Source: Xanthobacteraceae bacterium
GTDB taxonomy: Bacteria > Pseudomonadota > Alphaproteobacteria > Rhizobiales > Xanthobacteraceae
NCBI GenBank assembly: GCA_049698215.1
Contig: JBAVXH010000428.1
Coordinates: 613 to 64,612, forward strand
Direction of reading: 5' to 3'
DNA: 64,000 bases
The notes beneath the pieces were generated by a model. It had not been told where the DNA came from. It worked only from the letters and a program-made list of their open reading frames with translations, and did no database searches. Numbering within the stretch: position 1 is the stretch's first letter; every line of letters begins with the position of its first letter. A program made the translations under genes and the position numbers. Shown piece by piece: positions 1,117 to 33,708 of this stretch.

Positions 1117-1800
1117 TCATGCCGGCATCACGTCCGCGATCACCGGCAGATGATCGGAGTACAGCCGCCCTGCACGATCGGTGAAGCACCGAACGAAGGC
1201 CCTTTGGGGCCGGCAATAGATTCGATCGAGACGCAGCAAGGGGCAGCGGGACGGAAAGGTCCGAAAACGCGTGCGCGCTGGAAAAACGCTCGACAGCACA
1301 CTGCGCACCGATCCGGGCCAGAACCAGTCGTTGAAGTCGCCCATAATGACCGTTGTAAACTGCGGGTCGTTCGCCAACGCCATCAGGGTCTGCGTTTGCG
1401 CGCGACGCTCGTGGATCGAAAGCCCAAGATGCGTTGCAACCACGCGCAGCGGCCCCGACGGGGTGTCAATGCACGTTGCAATGACGCGGCGCGGTTCGCG
1501 CTCGGGGAATGAGATATCGTGAATCTCCGTGGCGCTCAGCGGCCAGCGGCTGATCAGCATCTGTCCGTAGCCGCCGTCTTCTGTGACGATGGACTTTGCG
1601 CCAATGCCGTGCTCTCCGAGCTCGCGCTGCAGGAATTCGAACGGATCGACATCGCTCTGGCGCCGCGAATCGACTTCCTGCAGCGCGACGATATTCGGCT
1701 GCCAACGGTCGATCAACTCGACCACACCGGCAAGATCATAGCGCGGGTTGCGGCCGAGCGTGCCATGAATATTCCAGCTCAACAGGCGAACCGTGCTCAA
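1117..1800 (-). CDS. Endonuclease/exonuclease/phosphatase (EEP) family protein
   Basis: C-terminal 227 aa of ORF 1117..2775: LLSWNIHG...IVALQEVD...VATHLGL...GDFNDW...SDHLPV are EEP-fold motifs. Proposed TTG start at 1798-1800 overlaps the TGA stop (1797-1799) of the upstream PLD gene (TTGA). Confidence 0.7.
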   Translation of the reverse strand: MSTVRLLSWNIHGTLGRNPRYDLAGVVELIDRWQPNIVALQEVDSRRQSDVDPFEFLQRELGEHGIGAKSIVTEDGGYGQMLISRWPLSATEIHDISFPEREPRRVIATCIDTPSGPLRVVATHLGLSIHERRAQTQTLMALANDPQFTTVIMGDFNDWFWPGSVRSVLSSVFPARTRFRTFPSRCPLLRLDRIYCRPQRAFVRCFTDRAGRLYSDHLPVIADVMPA

Positions 1801-3902
1801 CCGCGCCGTCCGAATTTTGCGAACGCCAACTGCACGGTCGCGGCCAGCGAAATCCAGATGATGATCAGCATCGCGAGCAACGCGATGTCTCCCGCGGTTG
1901 GCCCCGTCGCGATGCGCGCGATTTGATGGCCGAGCGCGGACATCAACATCCAGCCGGGCGCCATCCCGAGGATCGTGCCGGCGATGAAAGGACCGAGCCG
2001 GATATCGCTGGCTCCCGCTACGATGTTGACCACCGTGAAGGGTGCGATCGGCACCAGGCGAATGGCCGCGATCGTCACTACGCCGCCGCTCACGATCCTT
2101 CGCTGCACGCGCTTGAGGCGCGGCCCGATGACGGCGCGTAGCGTGTCGCGGCCGAGCGCAAAGCCAAGCGCATAGGTGACGGTCGCGCTCGCGAGCGATC
2201 CCGCCGCCGCGTAGAGGAACCCCAGCACGGGTCCGAACGCTGCGGCCGTCGCGGCGATCAGCAGCAACACCGGGAACGCGACCAGTCCGCCGACGACATA
2301 AACGCCGATGACCAGAAGCGGCGCCCACGGCTGCTCGGCGAGCGCGTTCAGCATCGGGCCGATCTCGGCTGGGCTCGCGACGTGCGAGAGCGGTGGGAAT
2401 TGCCACGCAATGGCCAAGGCCAGCGCAAGCAGCGGAACGGCGGCGAGCTTCGCCCACATCATCCAGCGCGAAGGGCGCGGAAGGCGATCGCGAAAGAAGC
2501 TCTCGATGAGTTTGTCGCTCTCGATGGGCCGCTCGGGATCGGCGACCGCTTGAAGATGCTCGGCAAACTCGCCCTCGTCCGCCTCGCCGTCCTCGATCGG
2601 GACCAGACGATGTCCCCGGCCCGACAGCGTGTCGGCTGCCGCGATCAGGCTCTGCTCCGCCGCGCTCAGCGCCTGTTCGACCGAGACGCCGCAGTGGTCG
2701 GCGAGCAGCCGTGCGCGCACGTATCGGATTCGTGAATGCTCCGCGTCGGACTTCGCCTCCACCACCAGGTCGCATTCGGTGTCGGTGCCCATCGATCGGT
2801 TATTGAGATTGGCGGAGCCGACACGCAGGATTCGGTCGTCGACGATCATGACCTTGGAGTGCACCATGGTATGCGCGACACGCTGGCCCGATCGTATCTC
2901 AGGGCACATGAGGCGCACGCGCTCACTTACGCCAGGCTCACTGAGCGCGCGCAGGAACTGAATACGACCGTTGCGCATCGTGTGGTATTCGAACCAATTC
3001 TCCGGTGTGTGAGGAGCGACAAGCAGCGCTTGCAAATTTGAGTTCGCGCGTAGGCGCTGCGCGAGCGCCTTAGCCATGGCGGTGCACGTCAGAAACTGGT
3101 TCTCGATATAGATCTCGCGTTCGGCGGAAGCGATCATGTCGGCAAACAGCGCCTCGACCTCTCGCACCTCCTCCTGCCCGTTGCAGGCCGGCAGCGTGCG
3201 GGCGATCGAAACCTGAACATCATGAAAGTCAGGAGCGACGTTCGGCCAGGGACTTTCTGCGGGCCTAATTGGAATGTGTTCGCCGGTGGCTCGCTGCCAA
3301 CGTTCGTGGACAAGCTCCGCGAGAGCGCGCGCCGCGTCGCCGTCGACCACCATCTGCACATCATGGAACGGCGGGTACGGCTTGCCTGACGGATCGCGCC
3401 GATGCGGGTCATCGAGATGATGCAACGACGTATCCCAGCGCCGGACCGCGAGATCGAGGCCGCCCGAGAATGCGAGCGCGTCGTCGACCACGATGATCTT
3501 CTGGTGATGCGAGGCGCCGGCGGGTAGCACGTTGTCGAGCCGGAAGCGGATCTGGTCGGGCGTTTGCCAGCCGAGCTTCAGGGAGGGAAATGGATCTCGC
3601 TCCAGCGCATAGAGGATCGCAAAATCCCAGGCGAGCAGATAGACTGTTAGTTCGGGCCGCTTTTCGACCATGCAGATCAAGAATTCGCGCAGCGTGAGCG
3701 GCCAGCCGTCATCGGCCGCGCAGTTCTCGCCGGCGAGTTTGGTGCGGCTGTCGAGATCCCACCCGACAATGAAGACGCTGTGCCGCGCTTGGCAGAGCGC
3801 GTCGCGCAGCGCCGCGAAATACGCAGCCGCATCAATCAGAACGGCAGCGCGGGATGCTGGCTCCGTGCGCCAGCAGTTGTCGCCAAGTCGCAGAATGCCC
3901 AT
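1797..3902 (-). CDS. Phospholipase D-like (two HKD motifs) fused to a C-terminal VTT/DedA (SNARE-associated) membrane domain
   Basis: HKD motif 1 is HHQKIIVVDD; HKD motif 2 is HSKVMIVDDRILRVGSANLNNRS. The C-terminal ~200 aa are multi-pass hydrophobic (LLVIGVYVVGGLVAFPVLLLIAATAAAFG...RLVPIAPFTVVNIVAGAS), typical of DedA/VTT. Start taken at ATG 3900-3902 (MGILRLGDNCW); the ORF track starts 7 codons earlier. Confidence 0.8.
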   Translation of the reverse strand: MGILRLGDNCWRTEPASRAAVLIDAAAYFAALRDALCQARHSVFIVGWDLDSRTKLAGENCAADDGWPLTLREFLICMVEKRPELTVYLLAWDFAILYALERDPFPSLKLGWQTPDQIRFRLDNVLPAGASHHQKIIVVDDALAFSGGLDLAVRRWDTSLHHLDDPHRRDPSGKPYPPFHDVQMVVDGDAARALAELVHERWQRATGEHIPIRPAESPWPNVAPDFHDVQVSIARTLPACNGQEEVREVEALFADMIASAEREIYIENQFLTCTAMAKALAQRLRANSNLQALLVAPHTPENWFEYHTMRNGRIQFLRALSEPGVSERVRLMCPEIRSGQRVAHTMVHSKVMIVDDRILRVGSANLNNRSMGTDTECDLVVEAKSDAEHSRIRYVRARLLADHCGVSVEQALSAAEQSLIAAADTLSGRGHRLVPIEDGEADEGEFAEHLQAVADPERPIESDKLIESFFRDRLPRPSRWMMWAKLAAVPLLALALAIAWQFPPLSHVASPAEIGPMLNALAEQPWAPLLVIGVYVVGGLVAFPVLLLIAATAAAFGPVLGFLYAAAGSLASATVTYALGFALGRDTLRAVIGPRLKRVQRRIVSGGVVTIAAIRLVPIAPFTVVNIVAGASDIRLGPFIAGTILGMAPGWMLMSALGHQIARIATGPTAGDIALLAMLIIIWISLAATVQLAFAKFGRRG

Positions 3903-3972
3903 GGCCTTATAGGCACCGCACAACGGGAGAGTTCCAATCCGCGTGGCGATTTGACCATGCGGCGACGCACAA

Positions 3973-3995
3973 GGGCGGCCCGATCAGGGCCGCCC
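3973..3995 (-). terminator. GC-rich perfect hairpin (9-bp stem GGGCGGCCC / GGGCCGCCC, 5-nt loop) downstream of the lipase gene
   Basis: Read directly from the sequence. It sits in the 133-bp gap between the lipase stop (4056) and the PLD start (3902). No U-tract follows, so intrinsic-terminator function is uncertain. Confidence 0.3.
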
Positions 3996-4055: not shown

Positions 4056-5477
4056 CTAGGCCGTCGCGAGGTATCTGGCGTAGTTATAAGGCCAGTGTTG
4101 CCACCACGTGCGGGTTGTGTCGTCCGGGATCAGCACCGGATCTCTTGGGTCGCGCGCGGGGAATAGATCGCGCGGATAGTATTCGCCCTCATAGACGACC
4201 GGGTAGTGCGCCGCGAGGACATGGGGGACACCCATTCCGACATATTCCATCGAGACCGCCGGCCCTTCATGCGATAGCGCCGAGATCAGGCCTCCCAGCA
4301 CGCCGGCGATGACCGACAATGGAAACGGAAGCTCGGGTGGCTTGTGCTGACCCGATCCCTCGATCATTTCCACCAGCGGCGCAAGTGGCGACGAAAGATA
4401 GAGTCCGGTCGGCTCGGCGTCCGTACCAAGACCGCTGGCAATCGCGGGGTTGATCAAATCCGACATTGCCGTCTTTGTCGGCGGCAATTGCTGAGCGGTG
4501 TCCAGCGAGTTGTCCACGCGATAGGAGAATCCGTCGTTGCCCAGTGCCAACGCATAGTTCGAAGCCATGGGCGTGTTGCAGCTCTTCGGAGTGGCGAAGC
4601 TGTAACATTTCACATTGATCTTCTTCCCGGGCACACCCCCTGCCCTGACCCATGCGGAGAACAGCTGCGCAACGGCGGCACCAAGGCTGTGGCCGGTGAC
4701 ATAGAGGTCGATCTCATCGCCCGGCAAGGTCGACAGAATCGTGCGCAGGTTTAGCGGGATCTGCAGATCGACTGCCAGCGATTCGACGGCCGTCCGATAA
4801 CCGATGTGGATCATCGGAAGCTTTAGCGGAGGCTGAGCCGGCCGGTCGCCGGGCACGACGCCGCTGGGCAGTTCGGCCGCAGTACCAAATGGCAGAGTAT
4901 AATTCTCGTTGCTCACAAGATAGGGCGTGTTGATCGGGCCAGCCGGGACCATCAACGCCGCTTCGTCCTGCATGGCCGCGCCGGGATTGAGCGTTCCGGC
5001 AAATGCGACCGCATAGGCGTTTCTGGCCGCATTGTAGGAAACGATGGCGCCATTCACCGGCGCGCCATTGGCAAGCCTGGAGGTCACGAGTGACGGCGCC
5101 CACGGCCGCAACGAGTCGCTGCTCTGCACGCCAGGACCCCATCCCGCGGGCCAGATGCGATTGGCGGGATAAGGATATGTGCGGCCATCATCGTTGGTCA
5201 GCGGATTGTCCGGGTCCGCCGAGGGAGTCAATCCGATCGGGAATGGAGGAAAGACAACCGGGCCCAGATAGTTCGCCACCACGCACATGCCCAGTAATTC
5301 TTTCGCCTCGTCGGCGGAGAAGCCGAGGATCGAAGGCCGCGGACCAACCGGACTTTCTGAGTCGCGCGTTGCCACGCTGGCCACCTGAGTGCCGCCTGTT
5401 TCGGAAACACTTGCTACGGGAACGCCGGGTTCAGAGGGGCTCTTGCTGCTCTTCGGTGCTTTCATCTTTGCCTCCAT
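4056..5477 (-). CDS. Class 3 (fungal-type) lipase family protein with a low-complexity Ser/Pro-rich N-terminus
   Basis: Nucleophile elbow YVTGHSLGAAVAQL (GHSLG). The N-terminal ~60 aa are KSSKSPSEPGVPVASVSETGG... with no obvious signal peptide. Last gene of the long minus-strand operon. Confidence 0.7.
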   Translation of the reverse strand: MEAKMKAPKSSKSPSEPGVPVASVSETGGTQVASVATRDSESPVGPRPSILGFSADEAKELLGMCVVANYLGPVVFPPFPIGLTPSADPDNPLTNDDGRTYPYPANRIWPAGWGPGVQSSDSLRPWAPSLVTSRLANGAPVNGAIVSYNAARNAYAVAFAGTLNPGAAMQDEAALMVPAGPINTPYLVSNENYTLPFGTAAELPSGVVPGDRPAQPPLKLPMIHIGYRTAVESLAVDLQIPLNLRTILSTLPGDEIDLYVTGHSLGAAVAQLFSAWVRAGGVPGKKINVKCYSFATPKSCNTPMASNYALALGNDGFSYRVDNSLDTAQQLPPTKTAMSDLINPAIASGLGTDAEPTGLYLSSPLAPLVEMIEGSGQHKPPELPFPLSVIAGVLGGLISALSHEGPAVSMEYVGMGVPHVLAAHYPVVYEGEYYPRDLFPARDPRDPVLIPDDTTRTWWQHWPYNYARYLATA

Positions 5478-5526
5478 TGATCGGATTTCTGCGGGTGAAG
5501 GGCGCTAAGCGGTCGAATGTGAGAAA

Positions 5527-6330
5527 TCATGGCGACACATGCATCTCAATGATCTCGCGGGTCAGGCTGTCGTGCGCGTTCGTTGACAAAATGCGATTTG
5601 GGCTCTCGTCAAAGACCTCGACAACACGCGGCACCGACATCGCCTCCGCCAAGGCCAAGCCGAAGCCCTGATTCGCCACGAACAGTTTTGCTGCCGCGAT
5701 GACTTGGGCGAGATCGACGAAATCGGTCGCCTTGTAGAACTCGACGGGAAACCGCGATTCGCAGAACGCAAAATGCTCCAGTTCAAGCCCGACAAAGACC
5801 GTCTTTCGGGCGAACGGCGCCAACATGCGCCAATCGAGTTGTCCCGGGTACCGGTCGGTTTTGCACACGACAATATCGCCGATGTGCTTTGGGCTGATGC
5901 CCGAGAGCCAGGGTTCAAGGTTCGCTTTTCCTGGCAATGAGACGCAATCCCAATGGCACTGAGGCAGATCGACCTCAATCTTGGGAATGATGTTCTCCCT
6001 CATCTGCTCCACGGCGTTGCCGAAAAGCAGGCCCGCGAAGCGGTTGCCTTGGGCGCGCAAGAAATTGAAGACATGAATGCCGCCCGCCTTGTCGCGGAAC
6101 CGGTCCAGGTCGCAGGTTACCAGCCTGCCGTCGTAGAGGGCTGCGTCGTGGATGTAGCTCTGGGTGCGCAGCAGCTGCGTCATCATCTCGGCAGACGCTT
6201 CGCCAAGCGGCGGCTTCTGGAAATATTCGGTGCGATGATCGACGAAGTAGCTACCACCTCCGAGCGCCCGGACGGCAGGAAGGCTGTAGATGATATCGCC
6301 CAATTTGCCGCTGTGCCGGAACGAGCGCAT
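5527..6330 (-). CDS. Hypothetical protein, possibly glycosyltransferase family 9 (heptosyltransferase)-like fold
   Basis: The N-terminus MRSFRHSGKLGDIIYSLPAVRAL resembles the GT9 N-terminal G-D-x-I-x-x-x-P-x-x-R-x-L signature. The C-terminal LFVANQGFGLALAEAMSVPRVV resembles the GT9 donor-binding end. Start at ATG 6328-6330, directly after the upstream stop (6333-6335). Weak, memory-based call. Confidence 0.35.
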   Translation of the reverse strand: MRSFRHSGKLGDIIYSLPAVRALGGGSYFVDHRTEYFQKPPLGEASAEMMTQLLRTQSYIHDAALYDGRLVTCDLDRFRDKAGGIHVFNFLRAQGNRFAGLLFGNAVEQMRENIIPKIEVDLPQCHWDCVSLPGKANLEPWLSGISPKHIGDIVVCKTDRYPGQLDWRMLAPFARKTVFVGLELEHFAFCESRFPVEFYKATDFVDLAQVIAAAKLFVANQGFGLALAEAMSVPRVVEVFDESPNRILSTNAHDSLTREIIEMHVSP

Positions 6331-6332
6331 GG

Positions 6333-7967
6333 TCAGGCCGCCCGTCGCGACAGGGTGCGCAGGCTCTGCGCCAGCAACCGGGGCAGGAACCACTGGATGC
6401 TCCAGCGGACGGCAAGCAAATCAACGAAGTTCAAAGGTATGCAGAAGTCGCGGACGCGCTGGCTCTTCTCGCCAAAACCATTCTTGAGGGCGAATTCGAC
6501 GATAACGCTTTCGATGGTCAGGCCAGGCGCCAGCTCCTCGATCACATCGCCGAGCGTCAACAGCATTTTGCGGTAGATCAGGAAAGAGCTGCTGAATTTC
6601 ACGCCCGCACGCAACAGCCGCTGCAACAAATCCTCAAATGCGCCGGAGCCGGGGATCGATCCGGGTGACAGAGCGACAAAAAATTCCTCGACGACGCGCG
6701 CGATCAACGTTCGGTTTTCGGGGCTCGGAGGCACGCTCAAGACTTCCAGGATCTGCCGTATCCCCCCTTCGTCGCGCAGCGGAATTGCTAACGACAGGAG
6801 AATGAGGAGTCGGCGCTCATCTTTGCTCAGGGCTGCGGTGAGCGCCCAGTCGAGCACCACGATCTCGCCGTCGGGCGTGATCCGGAGATTTCCGGCATGG
6901 GGATCGGCGTGAAGGACGGACAGCTCGTCACACGAGAACAGCGGGTGCGCGGCCAAATTCTCCGCCAGCGCTCGCGCGATGGCGCGCCGCCGTTCGGGAT
7001 CGCCGGGGAACGCCGCAGTGACCTTGACGCTGCGTTCTTCCGTCATCGCGGTGATGGTCGGGGTCGAAAGCGAATAGATCGGCTGTGGAATGCGAAGAGG
7101 CTCGACGCCGCGATATCGCTCCAGCGCCGCCGCCATTGACTGCCGTTCCAGCTCGAAATTGGTTTCCGAGAGGAAAAGATCCTTCACGTCCTCGAGCACG
7201 CCGCGCAAGTTGAGCCGTCCCAAGGTGTAGCGGTGCTGGTTCTCATCGAAATACCGGGCGAGATCTGAAAGCACCTCCAGGTCCTCATGGAAGTATTCGG
7301 GAATGAACGGCTTGAGCACCTTGAAGACACCAACCGCCGGCTCGCCGACCGGCGGGTTGCGGCGGGTAAAACGCAACAGCGCACTGACACTGCCCTCGGC
7401 ATAGAGATTCGGCTCGATCTCGACCTGTTGCTCGATGAGCGCATCGTGTAGCTGGCTCTCGACTTCGCTGCGGATTTCCGGCGCGCTCACCTCGTGAATT
7501 CCGTCTTCCAGCTCCGCCAGCCGGCTACGCAATTCGGGCGCAAGATCCTTGTTGCGGGCGATCGTCTGTCCGATTTTTTGGAGACTCGGAATACGCCGGA
7601 CAAAGACCAGGACACGCTCTTCGGGCCTGGTGTCCGGCGGCAATCTCAATTGCTCGATCAGTTTGGGGATCAACCTCTCGGCCGAAAGCCGCGCTCCAAT
7701 GAAGGCAAAGCCGTCCCGTACGACCGGGCGCCAATTCTCGTAGGTATCCGGGACCAGTTCTTCGACCGGCAGCAGGGCGATGATCAGGTCTTGCACGATG
7801 TCCCGATGAGCCTGCCAGTTCACCTCCGCCAGAGCGCGCGTGGCCTCGTCCTCGGCCACAAGGTCGCCGGCAATCAGGCGCAACAGCGCCGGAGCCGATC
7901 CCTCCGGCAGGATTTCGGCGAATGCGGTCAATGCGGCTTGTTGGGTGCTCGTCAGGACAGCCTCCAC
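6333..7967 (-). CDS. ABC1/UbiB-family atypical kinase (soluble paralogue)
   Basis: LHADPHAGNLRITPDGEIVVLDWA (catalytic-loop-like HADPHxGN plus D-W/F), FKVLKP Lys region. Overlaps the upstream paralogue by 16 nt. Confidence 0.7.
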   Translation of the reverse strand: MEAVLTSTQQAALTAFAEILPEGSAPALLRLIAGDLVAEDEATRALAEVNWQAHRDIVQDLIIALLPVEELVPDTYENWRPVVRDGFAFIGARLSAERLIPKLIEQLRLPPDTRPEERVLVFVRRIPSLQKIGQTIARNKDLAPELRSRLAELEDGIHEVSAPEIRSEVESQLHDALIEQQVEIEPNLYAEGSVSALLRFTRRNPPVGEPAVGVFKVLKPFIPEYFHEDLEVLSDLARYFDENQHRYTLGRLNLRGVLEDVKDLFLSETNFELERQSMAAALERYRGVEPLRIPQPIYSLSTPTITAMTEERSVKVTAAFPGDPERRRAIARALAENLAAHPLFSCDELSVLHADPHAGNLRITPDGEIVVLDWALTAALSKDERRLLILLSLAIPLRDEGGIRQILEVLSVPPSPENRTLIARVVEEFFVALSPGSIPGSGAFEDLLQRLLRAGVKFSSSFLIYRKMLLTLGDVIEELAPGLTIESVIVEFALKNGFGEKSQRVRDFCIPLNFVDLLAVRWSIQWFLPRLLAQSLRTLSRRAA

Positions 7968-9766
7968 AATCCTGCGAGAACCAATCCACCGACCGAAAGT
8001 TGCACCAACAATTGGCCGAAGGGATCGCTCGGCCAGAATTGCGTGAGCACCACCGGCAGGCGGAGGCCGTTGGTGAAAAGAAGAGCGCCAGCCAGAGCCA
8101 CACCCGCGATCACCATCGCTGCGGTGAGCCGGTTGATGCTGCGGCGCAGCCGATGAACTTCCTCCGGGTGCACGGCCGGAGCCACGACCGCGGTGACACG
8201 CTCATTCTTTCCCGCCACCAGTTGGAGGATCCAGATCATGCCACTCGGAATGCGCCCCGCGGCGACATCCTGCGCGGAGGTGCGGATCATCGTGGTGAAT
8301 TTTTCCAGGATTTCCTTTTGCAATAGCTGCTGGGCGAACGGGGCTGTTTCCGCCCACGGGTCGAAGTCCGTATCCAAACGCGCAGTCAAACCGGACAGCA
8401 TACCCATGGCCCGCATCATGAAGAGCATCTCGGTTTGAAATTGAAACGGGGCAAGGCGCATCAAATCTTGATACTTATCGAAGAACGCACGCGCCGCCGG
8501 GTTGGTGAGATCGCTCGAGCGCACCTGGCCAAGGAACGATCCCCAGAACAGGTCGAGTTGCTCGCGGATCATCTCCTCAATCCGCACCAGATCGGCGCCT
8601 GGCTGGAGGACACCCACAAGGCTGTACGATTCGAGAATCCGGCGCGGGTCTCGAGTCCCGAGGCCGATGACAAGTTCCCGTAGCGCGCTATGGAAACGCG
8701 GTGGCATCTCGACCACCATTCCGAAATCGATGAAATAGATAGCGAAGGGCGTCGAGAGCCTCTGGGGCGCCGCATGGTCGAGGCGAGATGCGCTCGGGTA
8801 TTCGCTTTCCATCAGGGGAAGCGGACGAACGAAGATATTACCCGGATGGGGATCGGCGTGGATGCGATAGGTAACGAAGAATTGCCGGAGATAGATATTG
8901 TAAACCGTGCGGGCGACGGCCTTCGGATCGATTCCGGCCTGTTCAAGGCCCACGACGTCATCGATACGAATGTACGACACATCCTCCATGGTGAGCGTGC
9001 CGGACGAGCTCTCGCGGCGATGGATGCGCGGCACCCTGAAGGCCGGATCGCCGGCGAAATCCACAGCGAAGCGTTCGATATTCAGGGCTTCGAGCCGCAG
9101 ATCGAGCTCGCGCACGGTCACCTGCTCGAACTCGTTCACCAGCGCATTGACATCGACGCTGCGCGTCAAGGGCCTCACGCGCTTGAGCACTGACGCAAGC
9201 TTCCACAGCAGGACGAAGTCGGACGCAATGATTTCACGAATGTGCGGACGAAGAACCTTCACGACGACAGGTTCGCCGGAAAGATCGTACGCTTTGTGAA
9301 CCTGGGCAAGCGACGCCGAGCCGATCGGGTACTCCGAGAAGGAGGAAAACAAGTCGCTAATGGCGCATCTGAACTCGGCTTCGATCAGCGCAATGATCCG
9401 CTGCACCGGCTCGGGCGGCACGTGATCCCGCAGCGACTCCAATTCCTGGGTGATTTCGAGCGGCAGCACGTCGACCCGGGTGCTGAGAAACTGCCCGAGC
9501 TTGATCCAGAGGCCCTGCCACCCCAGCGCGAGCTTCTTGTATTCCCTGGCATTGCGTTGCCAGCGCGGCACCCATGGGGTGCGGAACACGCGCAACCACG
9601 TGTATTTGAGGAAAACGTCCCACCACAGGAAATGCGCGACCATCCTGGTGAAAAAGGCAACGATGCGCCGCCGCCGCCTGCGCAGTGCGAGAGCGCTGGG
9701 GCCGGTCAGCACAGTGCGGTCGCCCTCATCGGGCGGCACGCTCGTGACTATGACCCTCTCGCGCAT
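7952..9766 (-). CDS. ABC1/UbiB-family atypical kinase with C-terminal transmembrane helices
   Basis: KLGQFLSTRVDVLP, GSASLAQVHKA, VVVKVLRP, HADPHPGNIFV, IDFGMV. The C-terminus has two hydrophobic helices (AAMVIAGVALAGALLF...; LLVQLSVGGLVLAGLW). Confidence 0.75.
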   Translation of the reverse strand: MRERVIVTSVPPDEGDRTVLTGPSALALRRRRRRIVAFFTRMVAHFLWWDVFLKYTWLRVFRTPWVPRWQRNAREYKKLALGWQGLWIKLGQFLSTRVDVLPLEITQELESLRDHVPPEPVQRIIALIEAEFRCAISDLFSSFSEYPIGSASLAQVHKAYDLSGEPVVVKVLRPHIREIIASDFVLLWKLASVLKRVRPLTRSVDVNALVNEFEQVTVRELDLRLEALNIERFAVDFAGDPAFRVPRIHRRESSSGTLTMEDVSYIRIDDVVGLEQAGIDPKAVARTVYNIYLRQFFVTYRIHADPHPGNIFVRPLPLMESEYPSASRLDHAAPQRLSTPFAIYFIDFGMVVEMPPRFHSALRELVIGLGTRDPRRILESYSLVGVLQPGADLVRIEEMIREQLDLFWGSFLGQVRSSDLTNPAARAFFDKYQDLMRLAPFQFQTEMLFMMRAMGMLSGLTARLDTDFDPWAETAPFAQQLLQKEILEKFTTMIRTSAQDVAAGRIPSGMIWILQLVAGKNERVTAVVAPAVHPEEVHRLRRSINRLTAAMVIAGVALAGALLFTNGLRLPVVLTQFWPSDPFGQLLVQLSVGGLVLAGLWRLS

Positions 9767-9787
9767 GGAACTCCCAATCGTCCGCTG

Positions 9788-11107
9788 TCAGTGGCCGGCT
9801 CGCGTTGTCCCTTTCAGCATCCGCGTCCGCAGCACCCCGGACAGGAATTGTTCAAAGGCTAAACAGGAATCCTGCTGTGCAGTTCGCCGCGCGATCTTCT
9901 GAGCCGCGACGCGATATTTGTCTTCGCTGAGGAGCCGCAGCGCCAACCGCCGCAGCGAATCGTCCGTGACCTCCGACTCGCGCATGAGCTCGCAGGCTCC
10001 CGCCTGCTCCACAGCCATGCTGTACAGCATCTGATCCAGATTCGAGATGAGCCCGAGGTAAGGGACGCCTGCGGATACGGCTTGCTGGCCCGACATCGCG
10101 CCTCCGTTGCAGATGACGAATCTGGAACGCCGGGCCGCTTCCATCCCGGGAATGAATTCAGCGAGGAAGACATTGCTCGGCAGTTGCGAGGGATTGATCC
10201 GGGCTGCGGTCGCCGCAATCACCGTCACCGGCAGCTCGCCCAAAACGCGGAACACCGTTTGCAGGAGCGCGGGTTCGCCGGTGCTGCCCAGCGAGACGTA
10301 CACGATCGGCTTGTGGGCGGGCAGGCGATCCCACCACGCAGGCGGCGGCACTTGGGCAGACCAGAGTAACGGGCCGATGAAGGCGTGTTCGGGCGGCAAA
10401 GGCTCGTGCAGCCGGTATAGCCCCGAATCGTTGGGATAAACCGCATAATCGCCGCAGGTGAAATAGGCCCGGATATCCGGTGCGATTTCCGGCAGCCCGT
10501 GTTTCCGCAGCACGCTGTTTATCGGTTCGACTTGGATCGCGAAGGCAATCGGAAGGACGACCGGCCGGACTATATGAAAGATGAAGTCCGACAAGGGGGT
10601 GCCTATCAGGCGCGAGATCGGGGAATCGGCCAGTTCGAACTTTGTGTCGACACACGGGCTCCAATGGGCATCGACGATCGACACGAAAGGAACGCCCGTC
10701 AGCCGACTGCTGACGATCAATGAGAACCGCGAATCGCCGACAACGATGTCGGGCTTGAACTCGCGAATAGTCTCGAGGTCGATCTGCACATACTTTTCCA
10801 GGATCTCGCGTGGAAAGAGCGGCTCGTTGTTATGTATACGCCGGAGAAAGGTCGAACTCGGCTCCGACTTGATATCGATGCGCGGGACGTTCTCGTCCGG
10901 CTGAAGCAGATGATTGTAGCGCGGATCGCGTGCAAAGCAGACGCTGTAGCCACGGCTGGCGAGATAGGAAGCGAGCATGGCCGGTCGCGCCACGTGCGAG
11001 AGGGCCGCGGTTTCGCCGATGAACAAAACGCGCGGTTTTGCGGAATCGACCGGGCTCCGGCCCGGCCTGGCCGGCGCCCATTGCTGCGCGTGGTGATACT
11101 CGCTCAT
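9788..11107 (-). CDS. GT1-family (MGT/UDP-glycosyltransferase-like) glycosyltransferase
   Basis: N-terminal VLFIGETAALSHVARPAMLASYL. The C-terminal donor-site region is VICNGGAMSGQQAVSAGVPYLGLISNLDQ (the hGG..s..eA...GvP...p...DQ pattern of GT1 enzymes). Start set at ATG 11105-11107 (MSEYHH), which overlaps the patatin TGA (ATGA). Confidence 0.7.
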   Translation of the reverse strand: MSEYHHAQQWAPARPGRSPVDSAKPRVLFIGETAALSHVARPAMLASYLASRGYSVCFARDPRYNHLLQPDENVPRIDIKSEPSSTFLRRIHNNEPLFPREILEKYVQIDLETIREFKPDIVVGDSRFSLIVSSRLTGVPFVSIVDAHWSPCVDTKFELADSPISRLIGTPLSDFIFHIVRPVVLPIAFAIQVEPINSVLRKHGLPEIAPDIRAYFTCGDYAVYPNDSGLYRLHEPLPPEHAFIGPLLWSAQVPPPAWWDRLPAHKPIVYVSLGSTGEPALLQTVFRVLGELPVTVIAATAARINPSQLPSNVFLAEFIPGMEAARRSRFVICNGGAMSGQQAVSAGVPYLGLISNLDQMLYSMAVEQAGACELMRESEVTDDSLRRLALRLLSEDKYRVAAQKIARRTAQQDSCLAFEQFLSGVLRTRMLKGTTRAGH

Positions 11108-12354
11108 CAGGTCCCGCGCAGTTGAGCGCCGCGGCGCGCTTGCATTTGCAGCGGATCGACGGTTGCCGGCGCCGATATTGCGTCTGCCGCGGTCGCGCCC
11201 GGCCAGAACCAGCCGCTGTCGGCCAGCCACTTGGCACTCCTTTGAACTGCCTCGTGCGTGCGCGGATCGTCCGGGACGAGAAAGTCCTTGATCGGAACGT
11301 TGAGGCGGTTGAAATTCTCTCGCAGCAGAACGCGGCATTGGAAGGCCGCCGACTCGTTGCCGCCCTGCAGAAATGCATCCACAAGGACCAGCGGATTTGA
11401 AAGATCAAATAGCCACTTTTGATAACCCCAGGCGGCGGATCCATTTTCGAATTCAGGATCGAGATATTGCGCCGTTCCCACCAGATTCCGGCCCGTGCCG
11501 ACCGACAGCACCAGAATCTCGTCCAACACACTCCCGGGCGCAATGGCGCCCCCTCTCATATGGATGATCGTGCCGACAATGGCCGCCAGAGTGATCATTG
11601 ACGGGTTGTTCGCGACGAGGCCCCCATCGACGAAGCCGGATACGCCGGGCGTGCCATAAAAGGACTGGTAAATAGGCAGCTCCAGCGGCGCAGCGCTGGT
11701 GCGCATCGCCACATCCACAACGCTCTCATCCAGGTCGGGATTGGAAGCCGGACTTATGCCTCCGTGCGGCAAGCTCACCGTGTACGGCAAATTCGTATAG
11801 AGCTTGGGCGCCCAGCTGCGCAGGTCGCTGGATTGACTCGCGACCTGCTTATCCAACTGGAAGGTGACGACCACGACCGGGTACCGCGTCAGGTCTCCCA
11901 GCCGCATGTCACCAAAGCGCTGAAGCAGCAATGTTTTCATGGCGTCATTGAGGAACAGGGAACGAACCCCGAGTGCCGCCATGGACAGGCCGGCGGCAAT
12001 CCTGATCACGGTACCGAGGTCTGCCGAATTCCCTGTGTGCGCCGGCATTTGCGCCAGCGCCTCAGACGCGGCAGCCTGGCTTTGCTGTAACGAACGTTGC
12101 GCCTCCGCGGAGCTCAGTCCTTCGAGGATCGAGGCGTTGACCTGGCTCCAAAAGGCCTTGATCTCTCCCAACGCAACCGTTGGATCGCCCGATGCAGCAA
12201 GATACAGGGCGTTAATGCCTCCCGCCGAGGTGCCGGCAAAAACATTGGCCTTATCAAGAAAGTGCTTGTGTGCAACATTTTCCAGTTGGATCAGCAACTC
12301 TGCGGTATTCAGGCCGTTGCCGCCATCCATCGAAAGGATTCGATATTTGCCCAT
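11107..12354 (-). CDS. Patatin-like phospholipase
   Basis: ILSMDGGNG (oxyanion DGGG-like), GTSAGG (GxSxG nucleophile), VDGGLVANNP (catalytic Asp, DGG). A purine-rich SD-like stretch lies upstream; the gap to the NRPS stop is 18 bp. Confidence 0.8.
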   Translation of the reverse strand: MGKYRILSMDGGNGLNTAELLIQLENVAHKHFLDKANVFAGTSAGGINALYLAASGDPTVALGEIKAFWSQVNASILEGLSSAEAQRSLQQSQAAASEALAQMPAHTGNSADLGTVIRIAAGLSMAALGVRSLFLNDAMKTLLLQRFGDMRLGDLTRYPVVVVTFQLDKQVASQSSDLRSWAPKLYTNLPYTVSLPHGGISPASNPDLDESVVDVAMRTSAAPLELPIYQSFYGTPGVSGFVDGGLVANNPSMITLAAIVGTIIHMRGGAIAPGSVLDEILVLSVGTGRNLVGTAQYLDPEFENGSAAWGYQKWLFDLSNPLVLVDAFLQGGNESAAFQCRVLLRENFNRLNVPIKDFLVPDDPRTHEAVQRSAKWLADSGWFWPGATAADAISAPATVDPLQMQARRGAQLRGT

Positions 12355-12372: not shown

Positions 12373-15300
12373 CTAGTCGACGACCACGAGTTTAAGCTTT
12401 GGCTCGAGCGTCGATTCAAACATTGGCGCGAATTGCGTCGCCTGCTGTGGATCCAAAATCAAAGTCATGTGCGTGCCAGGCGCGTCCCGCATGTCCACCC
12501 GAGCGCACCACTTCGCCATGCTGTTCAGCAAGGCGTCTTCCGATACGTCCGCCGGCGGCTGGGTTCGAAACAGCGTCACCGCGCCATCGAAGTACCTCGG
12601 CTGATAACTGCGCAGGCCTCTGACGTTGGCGAGAAAGACCCGCAGGGAGCGGCCGGCGCCCGCGACAAGTTCACCCAGGAACTGAGCGGACGCACGCCAG
12701 CCGCGCTGCCGCACATTGAGGAGCGAGGGTGGCAGCGCAATGCCAAGGAAGTTGGCCAGTTGCCGCACGGTTGCGTAGTTCAACGGCATGCGTTCGCTGA
12801 ACGGATAGGTGACGGCCCACCAAAGCCCACGAAGCAGCGAAATATTGCCCGGCAGCTTCCCATTTTCGGGCAGGGCACCATCGACCAAGCCAAGATAAGC
12901 GACTTGCTTGCCCGCCTCGCGCAGCTGGCATGCGATCTCGAACGCCAAAGGGGCTCCGAGCGACCAGCCCGCAATATGATAAGGCCCGGAAGATTGAACG
13001 GCGTAGATCGCCGTGAGATAGGCGCGCGCCTGGTCTGGAATCGAGGCGGCGACCTTGCCGCCCGAGAAACCGGGCGACAACAGCCCATAGACGGCGCGGT
13101 CTCCTTCGAAGGCGGACGCCCAAACCGCGTAGCACGCCGGACTGCCGCTCGCCGGAGGCGCGAGGAACAAGGGGGGCTGCATACCGCGACCGGATCTGAG
13201 CGGCACGATCTCATCGGGCAGCTTTTCTGTCCGCTGCTGCGCATCGTCCAGAAAGCTGGCCAGGGCCTCGATTGTGGGCCGCGCCACCATGCGCGAGAGC
13301 GGGAGGTCGATATCGAAGAGTTCGCGAACACGGAGCGCGAGTCGCGTCGCTGATAGCGAGTCGCCGCCGATTTGAAAGAAATCGTCCTGCACACCGACAG
13401 CAGAAAGGCGCAGGATTTGCTGCCAGAGCTCCACCAAGCGGCTTTCGGTGACGGTGCGCGGCTTGCAAAAAGCAGCGCGAGAGCCGCCTGCCCCTGCATC
13501 CTCCGCCAATCGCTTCCAATCGGTCTTGCCGCTCGTCGTTCTCGGCAGCTGCCCAATCGTGGCAAATGAAGACGGCAGCATGTAGCTGGGTAGCTTGGCG
13601 GCGAGGTAAGTGCGCAACGCTTCGGGCTTCGGTGCGGCACCGCCGGCAGGCACCAGGTAGGCTGCAAGACTGACCCGGCCGTCCGGGCTTTCCCTCGGCA
13701 CAACCGCGGCCTCCCGGATGTCCGGAAGTTCGAGCAAGGTGCGCTCGATTTCGCTGAGCTCCACGCGGCAACCGTGAACCTGAACTTGCCGATCGGCGCG
13801 GCCCAGGAATTCGATCTCGCCGTCTCGACGGATCCGGCAGAGATCGCCGGTCCGATAGACGCGCCGGCCATCCGGCAGAGTCGCAAAACCTCCCGCAGCC
13901 GATTCCGCGGAGCCCCAATAGCCGAGGCCAACAGCGCGCCCGCCGACAATCAACTCGCCCCAAACGCCCGGCGGGACCGGTTGCAGATTTCGGTCGACGA
14001 TCCGCAGCCAGACATTGTCGATGGGCCGGCCGATCGAGGGCGCGCCACCTTGCGCCGCCGACTCTACGAGACCGGACGTCGTGACGACGGTGGCCTCTGT
14101 GGGACCGTAATTGTTGACCAGGCGAAATGCGAGATCGCGCTTTGGATGCTTGCGGAGGCGATCGCCCCCGGTCAGAAGCCACCGCAGCTTAGTGCTCGCA
14201 GGCCAATCCAGCTCGATCAATTCCTCGGCCAGCAGTGTGGGAGCGAAGCTGATGGTGATATCGCGCTGCACGAGCCAGTCACGCGTGCGCGCGGCGTCGG
14301 CGATCAGTCCGCGTGGCGGAAAGTGGATGCTCGCCCCCGCTGAGATATTGGCCCAGATCTCCCAGACCGAGGCATCAAAAGACACGGAGGCCATCTGCGA
14401 GGCGCGATCGTTCGGAGAAACGCCAAACGCACGCTGATGCCAGACGGCAAGATTGGCCAGGTTGGATCGAGAAAGAGCAACGCCTTTCGGCTGCCCCGTC
14501 GAGCCCGAGGTATAAATAACGTACGCAGGATCATCGGGCTCCGTCGTACTCGGAGCCGAAAGTGAATCGGCCTTCGGCGCTTCATTCAGCACCTGCGAGA
14601 GCCTGATCGTCTCCCCGCTAGCTTGAATATCATTGACCTGATCGTCGCCGACGATCGTCAAAGCCGCTCGGCTGTCGCGAATCAGAAAGGCAACACGGTC
14701 TGCCGGCCAGGTTGGATCGATGGGCACAAATGCGGCGCCCGCCTTCATGATTCCAAACTGCGCCGCCACCAGCGCCGGTCCCGGCGGCATGAACAGCGCG
14801 ACCGTCTGGCGCCGCCCGACATTCCGGCGGCTGAGAAAATTCGCTACCTGCGTTGCAAGCGCACTCAATTCACCGAACGTGAATTGGGTTACACCATCGC
14901 TGAGCGCGAGAGCTTGCGGCGCCTCTTGCGCGAATCTCTCCGTTGCCACGCAGGCGCTAACCGACTGCCGGTCCGAAGTATCGAGCCCGCTCGCCTCCAC
15001 GAGTGCCAGCTCATCGTCGCCGAGCATCGGCAACAGCGTGATCGGCGAGTCCGGCGCCGCCGCGACGGATCGCATCAGCGTATTGAAGTGGCGAGCGATC
15101 TGTTGGGCGGTGGCGGCCTCGTATTTTTCCGCGTCGTAGTCGAGGATCCCTTTGATCTCGTCGCCTGAATCTTCCATCGCAAGGACAAGGTCGAACTTGG
15201 CCATGCCATTGGTGACTTCGGCGCCGCGCACCGTGAAGCCGGGCGTCTCGACAAAGAGGTCGACCTTCTTCTGAAAATCGAACAGGACGCGCGCCAGCGA

Positions 15301-16488
15301 TCGTGCGCCATCTCCCTTGAGCCCGAGAGATTGCACCACACGCTGAAACGGCACTTCCTGGTTCGCCTGAGCCCCCATGGCGACATCGCGAACGCGCGCC
15401 AGGACCGTGCGGAACGTCGGATCGCCGGAAAGATCGGTGCGCAGAATGATCGTATTGATGAAGACGCCAACGATGCCGTTGAGACTGCTCTGGGTGCGGT
15501 TCGTCGTCGGCAACCCCACCAGGATGTCGTCCTGGCCGGAGTAGCGCATCAGCACGATATTGAAGACCGCGAGAAGCGCCATGAAGAGTGTGGCGTTCGA
15601 CTCGCGCGCGAGGCGCTTGAGCCCGTCGATCGTATCCGCCGGACAACTGAATACTTCCCGTCCACCCGCGTGTGCGCGGTCATCGGAGATTTGGCGGTCG
15701 ACAGGCAGCTGCAGCGGACCATCTATCCCTTGGAGCCGTTCCTTCCAATACTCGAGCTGCCGCTCAAGAAGCGGCGCTGCGTCGGTGAAGTGTGTCTGCT
15801 CCCACAGCGCAAAATCAGCGTACTGGGCATCGACCGCACCAAGCTTGGGCTCGCGGCCTTCGAGAAGCGCCGCATAAGCTCCAAACAACTCCCTGAAGAA
15901 AATTCCGCCGGACCACCCATCGAAAATGATGTGGTGCATCGTGAAGAGCAGGCGGTATTGATCTTCGTCGAGCCTCCAGAGTGCAGCGCGGAAAAGCGGA
16001 CCTTTGTCCAACTGGAACGGCTCGCGGACCAGGACTTGCGCCTCGGCCTGATATTTCGCCACGCGCCGGCCCGCTGCCAGATCGCGCAGATCGCGTATGT
16101 CGAGTCGCGGTAGCGAACATGCGGCGACGCGCTGAAGCAAGCGGCCCTCTGCTGAGTGGAATGTGGTCGAGAAAATCTCGTGCCGCGCCATCACCAAATC
16201 AAAACTTTGCGCCAAGATCTCCGCGCGAACGCGGCCTTCCAGCTTCAGCGCGAACGTTTCGTTATAGAGCGGCTGATCGGGGCTCCATTGATGATTGAAC
16301 CACATCCGCTCCTGTGCAGCGGAAAGCGGAAACTCCCGGCGATTGTCGCGCGAGTGTGACGGGATCTTGTCGTTGGGAGAAATGGCGTCTGGCGATGCGT
16401 CCTGCAGCAGCCGGCGCGTCAGCAGCGCACGCTGCTGCGGTGAGAGCGCCGCAAGGCGCTTGGAGAGTGTGGCTGCTTCAGCCGGCAT
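12373..16488 (-). CDS. Non-ribosomal peptide synthetase, single terminal module C-A-T-TE (A-domain code reads Leu)
   Basis: C: HHIIFDGWS. A: YVIYTSGSTGQPKG, NNYGPTEATV, YRTGDL, GRADRQVQVHGCRVEL, LPRTTSGKTD. T: FFQIGGDSLSA. TE: GWSLGAP. N-terminal LSKRLAALSPQQRALLTRRLL docking-like helix. Confidence 0.95.
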   Translation of the reverse strand: MPAEAATLSKRLAALSPQQRALLTRRLLQDASPDAISPNDKIPSHSRDNRREFPLSAAQERMWFNHQWSPDQPLYNETFALKLEGRVRAEILAQSFDLVMARHEIFSTTFHSAEGRLLQRVAACSLPRLDIRDLRDLAAGRRVAKYQAEAQVLVREPFQLDKGPLFRAALWRLDEDQYRLLFTMHHIIFDGWSGGIFFRELFGAYAALLEGREPKLGAVDAQYADFALWEQTHFTDAAPLLERQLEYWKERLQGIDGPLQLPVDRQISDDRAHAGGREVFSCPADTIDGLKRLARESNATLFMALLAVFNIVLMRYSGQDDILVGLPTTNRTQSSLNGIVGVFINTIILRTDLSGDPTFRTVLARVRDVAMGAQANQEVPFQRVVQSLGLKGDGARSLARVLFDFQKKVDLFVETPGFTVRGAEVTNGMAKFDLVLAMEDSGDEIKGILDYDAEKYEAATAQQIARHFNTLMRSVAAAPDSPITLLPMLGDDELALVEASGLDTSDRQSVSACVATERFAQEAPQALALSDGVTQFTFGELSALATQVANFLSRRNVGRRQTVALFMPPGPALVAAQFGIMKAGAAFVPIDPTWPADRVAFLIRDSRAALTIVGDDQVNDIQASGETIRLSQVLNEAPKADSLSAPSTTEPDDPAYVIYTSGSTGQPKGVALSRSNLANLAVWHQRAFGVSPNDRASQMASVSFDASVWEIWANISAGASIHFPPRGLIADAARTRDWLVQRDITISFAPTLLAEELIELDWPASTKLRWLLTGGDRLRKHPKRDLAFRLVNNYGPTEATVVTTSGLVESAAQGGAPSIGRPIDNVWLRIVDRNLQPVPPGVWGELIVGGRAVGLGYWGSAESAAGGFATLPDGRRVYRTGDLCRIRRDGEIEFLGRADRQVQVHGCRVELSEIERTLLELPDIREAAVVPRESPDGRVSLAAYLVPAGGAAPKPEALRTYLAAKLPSYMLPSSFATIGQLPRTTSGKTDWKRLAEDAGAGGSRAAFCKPRTVTESRLVELWQQILRLSAVGVQDDFFQIGGDSLSATRLALRVRELFDIDLPLSRMVARPTIEALASFLDDAQQRTEKLPDEIVPLRSGRGMQPPLFLAPPASGSPACYAVWASAFEGDRAVYGLLSPGFSGGKVAASIPDQARAYLTAIYAVQSSGPYHIAGWSLGAPLAFEIACQLREAGKQVAYLGLVDGALPENGKLPGNISLLRGLWWAVTYPFSERMPLNYATVRQLANFLGIALPPSLLNVRQRGWRASAQFLGELVAGAGRSLRVFLANVRGLRSYQPRYFDGAVTLFRTQPPADVSEDALLNSMAKWCARVDMRDAPGTHMTLILDPQQATQFAPMFESTLEPKLKLVVVD
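12376..13191 (-). other. NRPS thioesterase domain (approximate bounds)
   Basis: GWSLG with Ser at aa 1176; a His lies near the C-terminus (APGTHMTL). Confidence 0.6.
13249..13461 (-). other. NRPS thiolation (PCP) domain (approximate bounds)
   Basis: GGDSL with Ser at aa 1044. Confidence 0.6.
13504..14931 (-). other. NRPS adenylation domain (approximate bounds)
   Basis: aa ~520-995; core motifs A3, A5, A7, A8 and A10 read directly. Confidence 0.6.
15019..16341 (-). other. NRPS condensation domain (approximate bounds)
   Basis: aa ~50-490; HHxxxDG at aa 185-191. Confidence 0.6.
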
Positions 16489-18310: not shown

Positions 18311-18314
18311 CGTC

Positions 18315-33678: not shown

Positions 33679-33708
33679 GCTTCCGGCTCAAGGTACCAGC
33701 GTTCCTCG

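Follow-up and report, generated by a model that had tools for sequence, protein, structure and literature searches.

A 64,000-nt stretch of DNA from a Xanthobacteraceae bacterium (assembly GCA_049698215.1, contig JBAVXH010000428.1, forward-strand positions 613 to 64,612; hereafter the window, in whose numbering all positions are given) carries a gene cluster of the polyketide synthase (PKS) and nonribosomal peptide synthetase (NRPS) type with an unusual, conserved accessory set. Behind its NRPS, a C-A(Leu)-T-TE module ending in a thioesterase (TE), stand six genes, all on the minus strand, for a patatin-like protein, a GT1 glycosyltransferase, two ABC1/UbiB-family proteins (UbiB1 and UbiB2), a GT9-like protein of 267 aa and a class-3 lipase. 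Comparison with related loci gives good support to a functional link between this tail and the PKS-NRPS core and to the conclusion that the two form one co-inherited unit. As for its function, we lean with moderate confidence towards the view that the tail is the late-stage half of one cluster, providing glycosylation and acyl-ester steps, while the ABC1 pair may handle a membrane-associated amphiphile.

Co-inheritance and organisation of core and tail

Patatin-anchored scans provided 10 genome and 20 metagenome loci, onto which all the cluster proteins were mapped by tblastn. An NRPS gene followed by the patatin gene was found in about 13 distinct loci, and the tail was present through the GT9-like gene in eight (the window, L002, L004, L008, L010, L011, L023 and L025), with the PKS, both flavoenzymes and the NRPS upstream of the patatin wherever the contig extended that far. 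Identities to the window in L002 were 87% for the NRPS, 76% for the patatin, 87% for GT1, 90 and 89% for the UbiB-family pair and 83% for the lipase; in L004 they were 67-75%, core and tail alike, and in L011 they were 58% for the PKS, 52-57% for the NRPS, 50% for the patatin, 56 and 53% for the pair and 60% for the lipase. The Acidobacteriaceae loci showed 50-68% identity, spread evenly over core and tail. An initial annotation of this stretch had proposed synteny as the test of its reading, and in loci of two phyla core and tail indeed occur together, their identities falling in parallel from about 90% to about 50%.

Searches from single proteins gave the same picture. Among 5.8 billion proteins, relatives of the 267-aa protein at at least 44% identity fall into 43 clusters formed at 90%, a count matching those for the phenylalanine ammonia-lyase (PAL) of the core (38, at least 68% identity) and for UbiB2 (46, at least 50% identity). 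All the long contigs opened for the 267-aa relatives encode an NRPS-TE, patatin, GT, two ABC1 proteins, the 267-aa protein, sometimes a TylF-family protein, and the lipase. Since the same gene set adjoins the same core in many independent contigs, the arrangement is not due to chance.

The whole cluster comprises about 25.7 kb and 13 operon-like genes, from a SnoaL-like gene to the class-3 lipase gene, and the annotated positions and minus-strand orientation of the six tail genes were borne out by the open reading frames and by Pfam. Spacing at the tail junctions, as read from the sequence, ranges from -16 to about +61 nt. The NRPS stop codon is separated from the patatin ATG by 18 nt including GAGGAAG, a gap that leaves no room for the promoter or terminator considered in the initial annotation and holds a ribosome-binding site only. 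The patatin and GT1 genes had been described as ATGA-coupled; they are coupled, but not by that overlap. At their junction (CTGATGAGC) the patatin stop TGA gives only its A to the GT1 ATG, forming a 1-nt TGATG overlap, and although a literal ATGA occurs there, the TGA within it is not the patatin stop. The TGATG overlap is a coupling equivalent to the ATGA type. The GT1 gene is followed by a 21-nt gap with GGGAG, and the UbiB1 and UbiB2 genes overlap by 16 nt, UbiB2 starting with a GTG whose position is kept in the orthologues. The GT9-like gene begins 2 nt after UbiB2 when started at the ATG at 6330, with which the gene calls of related contigs concur, while the longest reading frame (GTG at 6393) would overlap UbiB2 by 61 nt. 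From the GT9-like gene to the lipase there are 49 nt to the first ATG (5477) and 61 nt to the second (5465); the latter is preceded by GGAGG and is the start used by the gene call of the source contig, and the lipase probably starts there. The core genes upstream of the NRPS lie on the same strand, again overlapping or nearly so.

About 60 nt past the lipase stop, a GC-rich hairpin (3973-3995, minus strand) has perfect 9-bp arms (GGGCGGCCC/GGGCCGCCC) and a weak U-tract. It is probably the end of the operon, because it is perfect, is the strongest local structure in the spacer after the lipase, and has a stem at the same site in relatives: an identical one in L002 and a different one, of 15 nt, in L004, a 70%-identity relative. 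A scan for sigma-70 promoters and intrinsic terminators found none in the intergenic gaps, with counts below those of shuffled sequences, and is uninformative in such a GC-rich organism; the terminator-like sites it did report were also fewer than in shuffles and all intragenic, and the hairpin is found only after the last gene. By strand, spacing and the absence of an internal terminator, core and tail are a single biosynthetic gene cluster.

These observations bear on the idea that the tail is an independent envelope-lipid operon merely abutting the PKS-NRPS. UbiB2-like and patatin-like genes do also stand alone elsewhere, and a mycobacterial ABC1 gene beside the lipase LipG has been linked to envelope homeostasis, as would suit such an operon. 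However, the 18-nt gap holds nothing but a ribosome-binding site, core and tail diverge uniformly over two phyla, the attachment to the NRPS is retained in L023 in spite of a changed order of the tail genes, and among the patatin-anchored genome and metagenome loci scanned a complete tail was never found without an NRPS. The idea is largely refuted by this synteny, and we consider it extremely improbable.

The window proteins have been deposited as those of a Xanthobacteraceae metagenome-assembled genome (MAG), and a protein from the flank shares a cluster at at least 90% with one from another Xanthobacteraceae MAG. Those relatives that are 50-55% identical belong to Acidobacteriaceae MAGs. 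Core and tail appear to move together between the two phyla (L010-L012, L015 and L021-L025 as compared with the window), and transfer of the cluster between phyla is suggested because hosts of both phyla carry it and because its G+C content (0.60-0.62) is below that of the flanks (0.64-0.68). Several versions differ in detail. In the Acidobacteriaceae loci a TylF-family O-methyltransferase gene follows the 267-aa gene, and in L023 the order is patatin, GT2-GT1, UbiB2, 267-aa gene, TylF and UbiB1. In L008, also from Acidobacteriaceae, the lipase gene is succeeded by genes for an MFS transporter and a PAP2 phosphatase.

Predicted activities of the tail proteins

Family assignments were made with Pfam gathering scores and NCBIfam curated cut-offs. 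Five of the six tail proteins exceed the Pfam gathering score, the exception being the 267-aa GT9-like protein, and the catalytic residues of all six are conserved. The initial annotation called this a lipid-handling tail, which underweights glycosylation, as two of the six genes encode glycosyltransferases and a GT2 domain and TylF are added in Acidobacteriaceae. In total, the cluster family has three to five sugar-related activities, and from its predicted gene products the tail would be mainly a glycosylation module, accompanied by enzymes for acyl esters and by an ATPase pair anchored in the membrane.

The GT1 protein (9788-11107, minus strand) is a GT-B glycosyltransferase of the small-molecule type, with 47.5 bits to EryCIII-like_C against a threshold of 31.7, and its nearest PDB structures are CalG1, OleD/OleI and YjiC. 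It scores 79.9 bits against the MGT subfamily model (TIGR01426), under the cut-off of 260. In the Acidobacteriaceae loci it carries a fused N-terminal GT2 domain, giving proteins of 743-747 aa.

The 267-aa protein (5527-6330, minus strand) had been labelled GT9-like. No Pfam or NCBIfam match was obtained, PF01075 included, nor any meaningful match in a profile search of PDB sequences, so that the label has no support from sequence models; it does stand on the fold match and on the fusions in the family. The predicted structure (pLDDT 95) has as its top eight Foldseek matches the GT9 heptosyltransferases WaaC, WaaF and 3tov, at E values of 1e-6 to 2e-5 but with TM scores of only 0.49-0.53, the protein being 50-80 residues shorter than its matches. 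A profile search of 1.84 billion proteins showed that the family has at least 3452 representatives, often fused to GT2, GT4, GT6 or GT9 pieces and to TylF- or FkbM-type methyltransferases, and two multidomain members hold a stretch passing PF01075. Because of this fold match and these glycosyltransferase and methyltransferase fusions, we conclude that the protein is probably a glycosyltransferase of a GT9-like GT-B family that lacks a domain model. Distant relatives of it were also seen in a locus resembling those for ribosomally synthesised and post-translationally modified peptides (L006) and in a phage-like locus (L007).

UbiB1 (7952-9766) and UbiB2 (6333-7967), both on the minus strand, match ABC1 (PF03109) with 204.1 and 75.6 bits, respectively, against a gathering score of 22.9. 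In UbiB1 the KxGQ motif, the catalytic Lys, HADPHPGN and DFG are present. Residues K131/G133/Q134, K216, H353-D355-H357-G359-N360 and D373 are invariant over both paralogues and 19 sequences, while UbiB2 is divergent in its Ala-rich loop. A hydrophobic segment spans residues 544-574 of UbiB1, and C-terminal membrane helices are predicted in this protein only, with none in UbiB2. The AlphaFold2 model of UbiB2 (pLDDT 89) is matched by Foldseek first to COQ8A (E 1e-10, TM 0.72) and then to MSMEG_1954 and Rv3197.

The initial annotation spoke of two ABC1/UbiB kinases; domain and motifs agree with the family, but both proteins miss the cut-off of the UbiB equivalog TIGR01982 (272 bits for UbiB1 and 91 for UbiB2, against 487.55), and both are likewise under that of PRK04750 (201 and 42 bits, against 667). 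None of the neighbouring genes in the window is a ubi gene, and at every orthologous locus the pair lies inside the PKS-NRPS cluster. A genuine UbiB of ubiquinone synthesis was rejected on these equivalog cut-offs and this genomic context; the Acidobacteriaceae, for their part, are described as menaquinone organisms. By fold and motifs the pair belongs, as far as can be judged from such comparisons, to the ABC1/UbiB family without being UbiB orthologues. The isoprenoid-quinone handling that the name UbiB implies is thus not supported, and the closest relatives with solved structures are ABC1 ATPases of mycobacteria, among them one that binds a macrolide carrying sugars. COQ8/UbiB proteins handle hydrophobic quinone precursors, and the KxGQ motif of COQ8A was reportedly found by Stefely and colleagues in 2015 to occlude the substrate cleft and to favour ATPase over kinase activity. 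The mycobacterial Rv3197, or MABP-1, is a dimeric ABC1 ATPase which binds erythromycin and confers macrolide resistance (PMC6208485); the model for MABP-1 (NF050082) was matched with 87.7 bits, under its cut-off of 800.

The ABC1 proteins might instead be true small-molecule kinases, similar to the aminoglycoside and macrolide phosphotransferases, which would phosphorylate the product or its sugar as tailoring or masking, with the hydrolases unmasking it later. UbiB2 also reaches the gathering score of the APH phosphotransferase family, the catalytic Asp, Asn and Lys are kept in both UbiB1 and UbiB2, and PAP2 phosphatases occur near two versions of the cluster. Yet KxGQ is invariant, PAP2 is not conserved with the cluster, and we know of no bacterial ABC1-family member for which phosphotransfer has been shown, so this explanation seems very unlikely.

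The patatin-like serine hydrolase or acyltransferase (11107-12354, minus strand) scores 58.1 bits to Patatin (PF01734) against a gathering score of 27.7. Its DGGNG, GTSAG and DGG motifs are invariant in five cluster orthologues; farther relatives alter the flanks (GTSVG and DGF in L013) and retain the catalytic Ser and Asp. NRPS clusters of three kinds have it in first place after the TE. Its nearest structures are of the CapV type, and an anti-phage patatin of CBASS was considered and rejected, given that PADLOC matched effector models only, that the other five tail proteins had no match and that the equivalog score was missed (86 bits against 200). The class-3 lipase-fold serine hydrolase (4056-5477, minus strand) has 52.7 bits to Lipase_3 (PF01764) against 22, with residues 221-334 only aligning to the model; its GHSLG, the Asp of NSLDTA..LPP and the C-terminal His461 are invariant in five orthologues. 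No signal peptide was found on the patatin or the lipase.

A self-resistance or pro-drug system would also make use of these proteins: GT1 would inactivate a toxic acyl-Leu, the UbiB pair would sequester the glycoside or hand it off, a role that has been proposed for MABP-1, and the patatin and lipase would act as esterases that process or reactivate it. In keeping with this, the best NCBIfam and PDB relatives of GT1 are macrolide-inactivating or macrolide-family glycosyltransferases, and the nearest solved relatives of UbiB1 include the macrolide-resistance ATPase Rv3197/MABP-1. Furthermore, in L013, from Solibacteraceae, an unrelated multi-module NRPS-TE is followed by a patatin (34% identity), an ABC1 protein anchored in the membrane (42% identical to UbiB1) and a GT1 (41%), with nothing further. 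That this patatin-UbiB-GT1 triad serves an unrelated NRPS fits generic protection better than structure-specific tailoring. The scores, however, are far under the cut-offs (80 against 260 for MGT and 88 against 800 for MABP-1), a second or third glycosyltransferase and a sugar O-methyltransferase are excessive for simple inactivation, and the cluster lacks a secreted glycosidase, its hydrolases being without signal peptides. We regard self-resistance as an unlikely function of the tail.

The assembly line and the proposed late steps

The first conserved gene of the cluster encodes a SnoaL-like protein (29176-29694, minus strand, as all the core genes; Pfam SnoaL 86.5 bits), which stands directly upstream of PAL also in the Acidobacteriaceae locus L039. 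PAL (27337-29037; Lyase_aromatic 458 bits) is of the cyanobacterial type, with 662 bits to the Anabaena/Nostoc PAL structures 2nyn, 3czo and 2nyf. It overlaps by 4 nt (ATGA) the gene for an acyl/aryl-acid adenylating enzyme fused to a carrier protein (25520-27340; AMP-binding and PP-binding), the loader, whose closest NCBIfam models are acyl-CoA ligases. Because PAL matches the Anabaena/Nostoc enzymes and overlaps the loader, cinnamate is a likely starter and probably the substrate of the loader. The type I PKS that follows (20110-25494) is a KS-AT-DH-KR-ACP module by its Pfam domains, without an ER domain, and is 52-58% identical in the Acidobacteriaceae loci.

Two flavin-dependent halogenase-like enzymes are encoded next. 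The first (18315-20135; FAD_binding_3/Trp_halogenase) has a docking-like N-terminus, the motifs GGGLAG and HKVGES and a degenerate WVWLIR, and its best NCBIfam match is CmlS, at a score far under the cut-off. The second (16478-18310; Trp_halogenase 46 bits) contains WVWFIP, of the form WxWxIP, together with HKVGES, and its stop codon overlaps the NRPS start by 11 nt. Helical N-termini rich in Arg and Leu, of which KRIDALDDRKRELLARL and SKRLAALSPQQRALLTRRLL are examples, resemble one another in both flavoenzymes (16478-20135), the PKS and the NRPS. Their likeness to docking elements suggests that the flavoenzymes may act on carrier-bound intermediates.

The NRPS (12373-16488; Condensation, AMP-binding, PP-binding and Thioesterase) has the specificity code DAWFLGNVVK, identical in nine orthologues, which we take to be the canonical Leu code, and the Ser/Asp/His of its TE are invariant in ten aligned sequences. 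With an identical Leu code and an intact TE triad, the acyl-Leu product named in the initial annotation is a reasonable proposal. The same annotation had noted the lack of MbtH and of an exporter. A six-frame motif scan of the window gave no MbtH-like motif other than one spurious match. The Pfam scan of the operon proteins revealed no exporter inside the window operon, but this is not general, as an MFS gene follows the lipase in L008.

Taken together, these genes predict as product an acyl-Leu glycoside that is primed with cinnamate and halogenated. The core would synthesise a cinnamate-primed, probably halogenated, polyketide-extended acyl-Leu that is released by the TE. One to three sugars might then be added, by GT1 followed by the GT9-like enzyme, with participation of the GT2 domain and O-methylation by TylF in the Acidobacteriaceae. 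Acyl esters on the glycoside may be formed or trimmed by the patatin and the lipase, in which case the product would be amphiphilic and resemble a glycolipid. The translationally coupled UbiB proteins, UbiB1 anchored in the membrane and UbiB2 soluble, would probably form a heterodimer, which might use ATP in binding or extracting this amphiphile at the cytoplasmic membrane. If COQ8/UbiB and the macrolide-binding MABP-1 are taken as analogues, the purpose might be hand-over from enzyme to enzyme, export or self-protection.

Several points weigh against this reading. Every chemical step of the pathway is one that we infer. Patatins and class-3 lipases are usually hydrolases, and an acyltransferase role for them is speculative. 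The lipase is absent from its usual place in L023 and is thus not indispensable. A lone patatin, 58% identical to that of the window, lies in L009 (4086-5264) between a nitrile hydratase subunit gene and a DUF2961 gene. UbiB2-like proteins at about 40% identity are encoded by solitary genes in ordinary contexts outside biosynthetic clusters, which makes a recruited housekeeping role indistinguishable from a product-specific one. Finally, the hosts could have been misassigned in the binning of the MAGs.

The product might also be anchored covalently in the membrane, the course closest to the idea in the initial annotation of a transfer onto a membrane lipid or glycolipid. A lysolipid made by the patatin would serve as acceptor, and either the TE or the lipase would form the ester between the halogenated aryl-acyl-Leu and a phospho- or glycolipid, which the UbiB pair would then move. 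The cluster would thereby be a type I PKS-NRPS counterpart of the aryl-polyene, xanthomonadin or flexirubin lipids. A PKS without ER, an aryl starter derived from PAL and halogenases recall the halogenated aryl-polyene pigments; in addition, there are two lipase-fold enzymes with intact catalytic residues, the patatin is always first after the TE, and the lipase is followed by PAP2 and MFS genes in L008 and by a PLD-DedA fusion in the window and L002. None of the latter (PLD-DedA, PAP2 and MFS) is conserved with the cluster, though, and the lipase is dispensable in L023. The Pfam-scanned genes include no acyltransferase of the aryl-polyene-cluster types and no LolA- or MMPL-type exporter, and GT1 is of the small-molecule type. 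Covalent anchoring is, in our judgement, an unlikely course.

A bolder proposal can be made only tentatively, and we consider it unlikely: a coupled but diverged UbiB-family ATPase pair may have been recruited into a horizontally mobile PKS-NRPS cluster as a dedicated, ATP-driven extractor or chaperone of the cluster's own glycolipid and, together with the patatin and the lipase, may couple the halogenated aryl-acyl-Leu to a membrane lipid or glycolipid. The role of UbiB/ABC1 proteins outside quinone biosynthesis, whether as kinase, ATPase or lipid extractor, is debated, and here a pair is fixed in a pathway with a predictable substrate that can be made. If the recruited pair is indeed an extractor, it would provide the first small-molecule client of a bacterial UbiB family that is readable from the gene neighbourhood, as well as a type I PKS-NRPS counterpart of the aryl-polyene lipids. 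Irrespective of this, the patatin, the class-3 lipase and a GT9-like family with thousands of members form a conserved and unexplained accessory set, in producers from which hardly any natural products are known (Acidobacteriaceae and Xanthobacteraceae of soil), and cluster-boundary predictions for this cluster family should take in the tail.

Related systems and neighbouring genes

The initial annotation considered the combination of PKS-NRPS chemistry with a UbiB pair undescribed or rare, and in the literature searched, of limited coverage, no description was found either of such a cluster or of the architecture with PAL and halogenases. The nearest systems in chemical logic are the mycobacterial glycopeptidolipid (GPL) loci, which combine a PKS/NRPS acyl-peptide, GT1s and sugar O-methyltransferases to form an envelope-associated amphiphile. 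The likeness lies in an acyl-peptide from a PKS/NRPS that is decorated by a GT1 and a sugar O-methyltransferase. In contrast to GPL, the window cluster is aryl-primed, has a single residue (Leu) and is probably halogenated; GPL loci include MmpL4/Gap export and acetyltransferases and, to our knowledge, hold no patatin, class-3 lipase or ABC1 pair. In the oleandomycin producer, self-resistance is achieved by glycosylation through OleI/OleD. GT1 of the window is likewise of the macrolide-GT family type, but the window cluster has no ABC exporter or secreted glycosidase and has several extra sugar enzymes.

With UbiB and COQ8 the pair shares the ABC1 domain, KxGQ, the catalytic Lys, the HxDxHxGN loop and the Mg-binding Asp, and UbiB1 has C-terminal membrane helices like those of bacterial UbiB; it differs in being under the equivalog cut-off and in having no ubi genes nearby. 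Among proteins of solved structure, MABP-1 and MSMEG_1954 stand nearest in sequence to both UbiB1 and UbiB2, and they are close fold matches of UbiB2, ranking directly behind COQ8A. MABP-1 is nevertheless distant, and it is a soluble homodimer encoded outside a biosynthetic cluster (PMC6208485), whereas the window has two diverged paralogues, one of them membrane-anchored. Rv0647c/MSMEG_1353, an ABC1-type ATP-binding protein, is conserved beside the phospholipase/thioesterase LipG and linked to envelope lipid homeostasis (bioRxiv 10.64898/2026.02.26.708182). Unlike the window, this mycobacterial locus has no assembly line or glycosyltransferases and only a single ABC1 gene, and the comparison of the lipases is one of gene context.

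Patatin genes are found near other assembly lines as well. In the puwainaphycin cluster, the patatin-like gene orf2 stands beside the NRPS with no step assigned (PMC4219810), and NRPS clusters of Rhodoferax and Rhodocyclaceae include genes for a patatin and a SNARE-associated domain (PMC10681181). The window similarly has a VTT/SNARE-associated (DedA) fusion just downstream, though it is not conserved with the cluster. No ABC1 pair, GT1 or GT9-like genes are reported for the puwainaphycin and Rhodoferax-type clusters, and the resemblance of their patatins to that of the window is one of position. Among the loci scanned, distant patatins (29-35% identity) adjoin other NRPS or pyrrole-halogenase clusters. 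In L014 (9866-12191) and L030 (8215-15210), such patatins (29-35%) lie beside an ArsA-like ATPase, with an adenylating enzyme, an acyl-CoA dehydrogenase and a halogenase that follow a pyrrole-type logic, which by gene content looks like another recurrent pairing of patatin and assembly line. The lone patatin of L009 is nearer to that of the window than is the cluster-encoded patatin of the same MAG. Locus L016 (Rhodocyclaceae), with a partial patatin-like fragment in an unrelated context, was set aside as uninformative.

Beyond the hairpin, the window encodes a PLD domain fused to a VTT/DedA (SNARE-associated) membrane domain (1797-3923, minus strand) and, downstream of it, an EEP phosphatase (1117-1800, minus strand) and an HD protein (353-1033, minus strand). 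These three were rejected as tail genes, being retained in L002 only, absent from L004, L008 and L023, and separated from the tail by the hairpin. On the other side, 4-5 kb upstream of PAL, positions 32956-34440 encode a PAP2 phosphatase (minus strand) and an Sfp-type phosphopantetheinyl transferase (plus strand), adjoined by a class-III aminotransferase and a PglD-like hexapeptide transferase. All four were excluded from the conserved cluster genes, since they are absent upstream of the Acidobacteriaceae copy; the Sfp-type phosphopantetheinyl transferase may serve the cluster despite this lack of conservation.

Two loci of the same MAG (MFD10064.bin.1.84), L010 and L015, both have the PKS-halogenase-NRPS core at near-equal identities to the window. 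The patatin and GT1 matches in L015 are fragmentary (39 and 35%), and this locus may be a decaying second copy or an artefact of assembly or binning. On a 2.29-Mb contig (L040), a PAL 63% identical to that of the window is found with the loader, the PKS and the two-flavoenzyme core, preceded by transposases and an Na/H exchanger, and related clusters may be headed by the PALs of Nostoc, which are about 60% identical. Near the cluster of L039, from Acidobacteriaceae, there is a further gene of lipase type (7491-9164); its 557-aa product weakly matches the secretory-lipase model PF03583, and the gene lies just upstream of the SnoaL gene.

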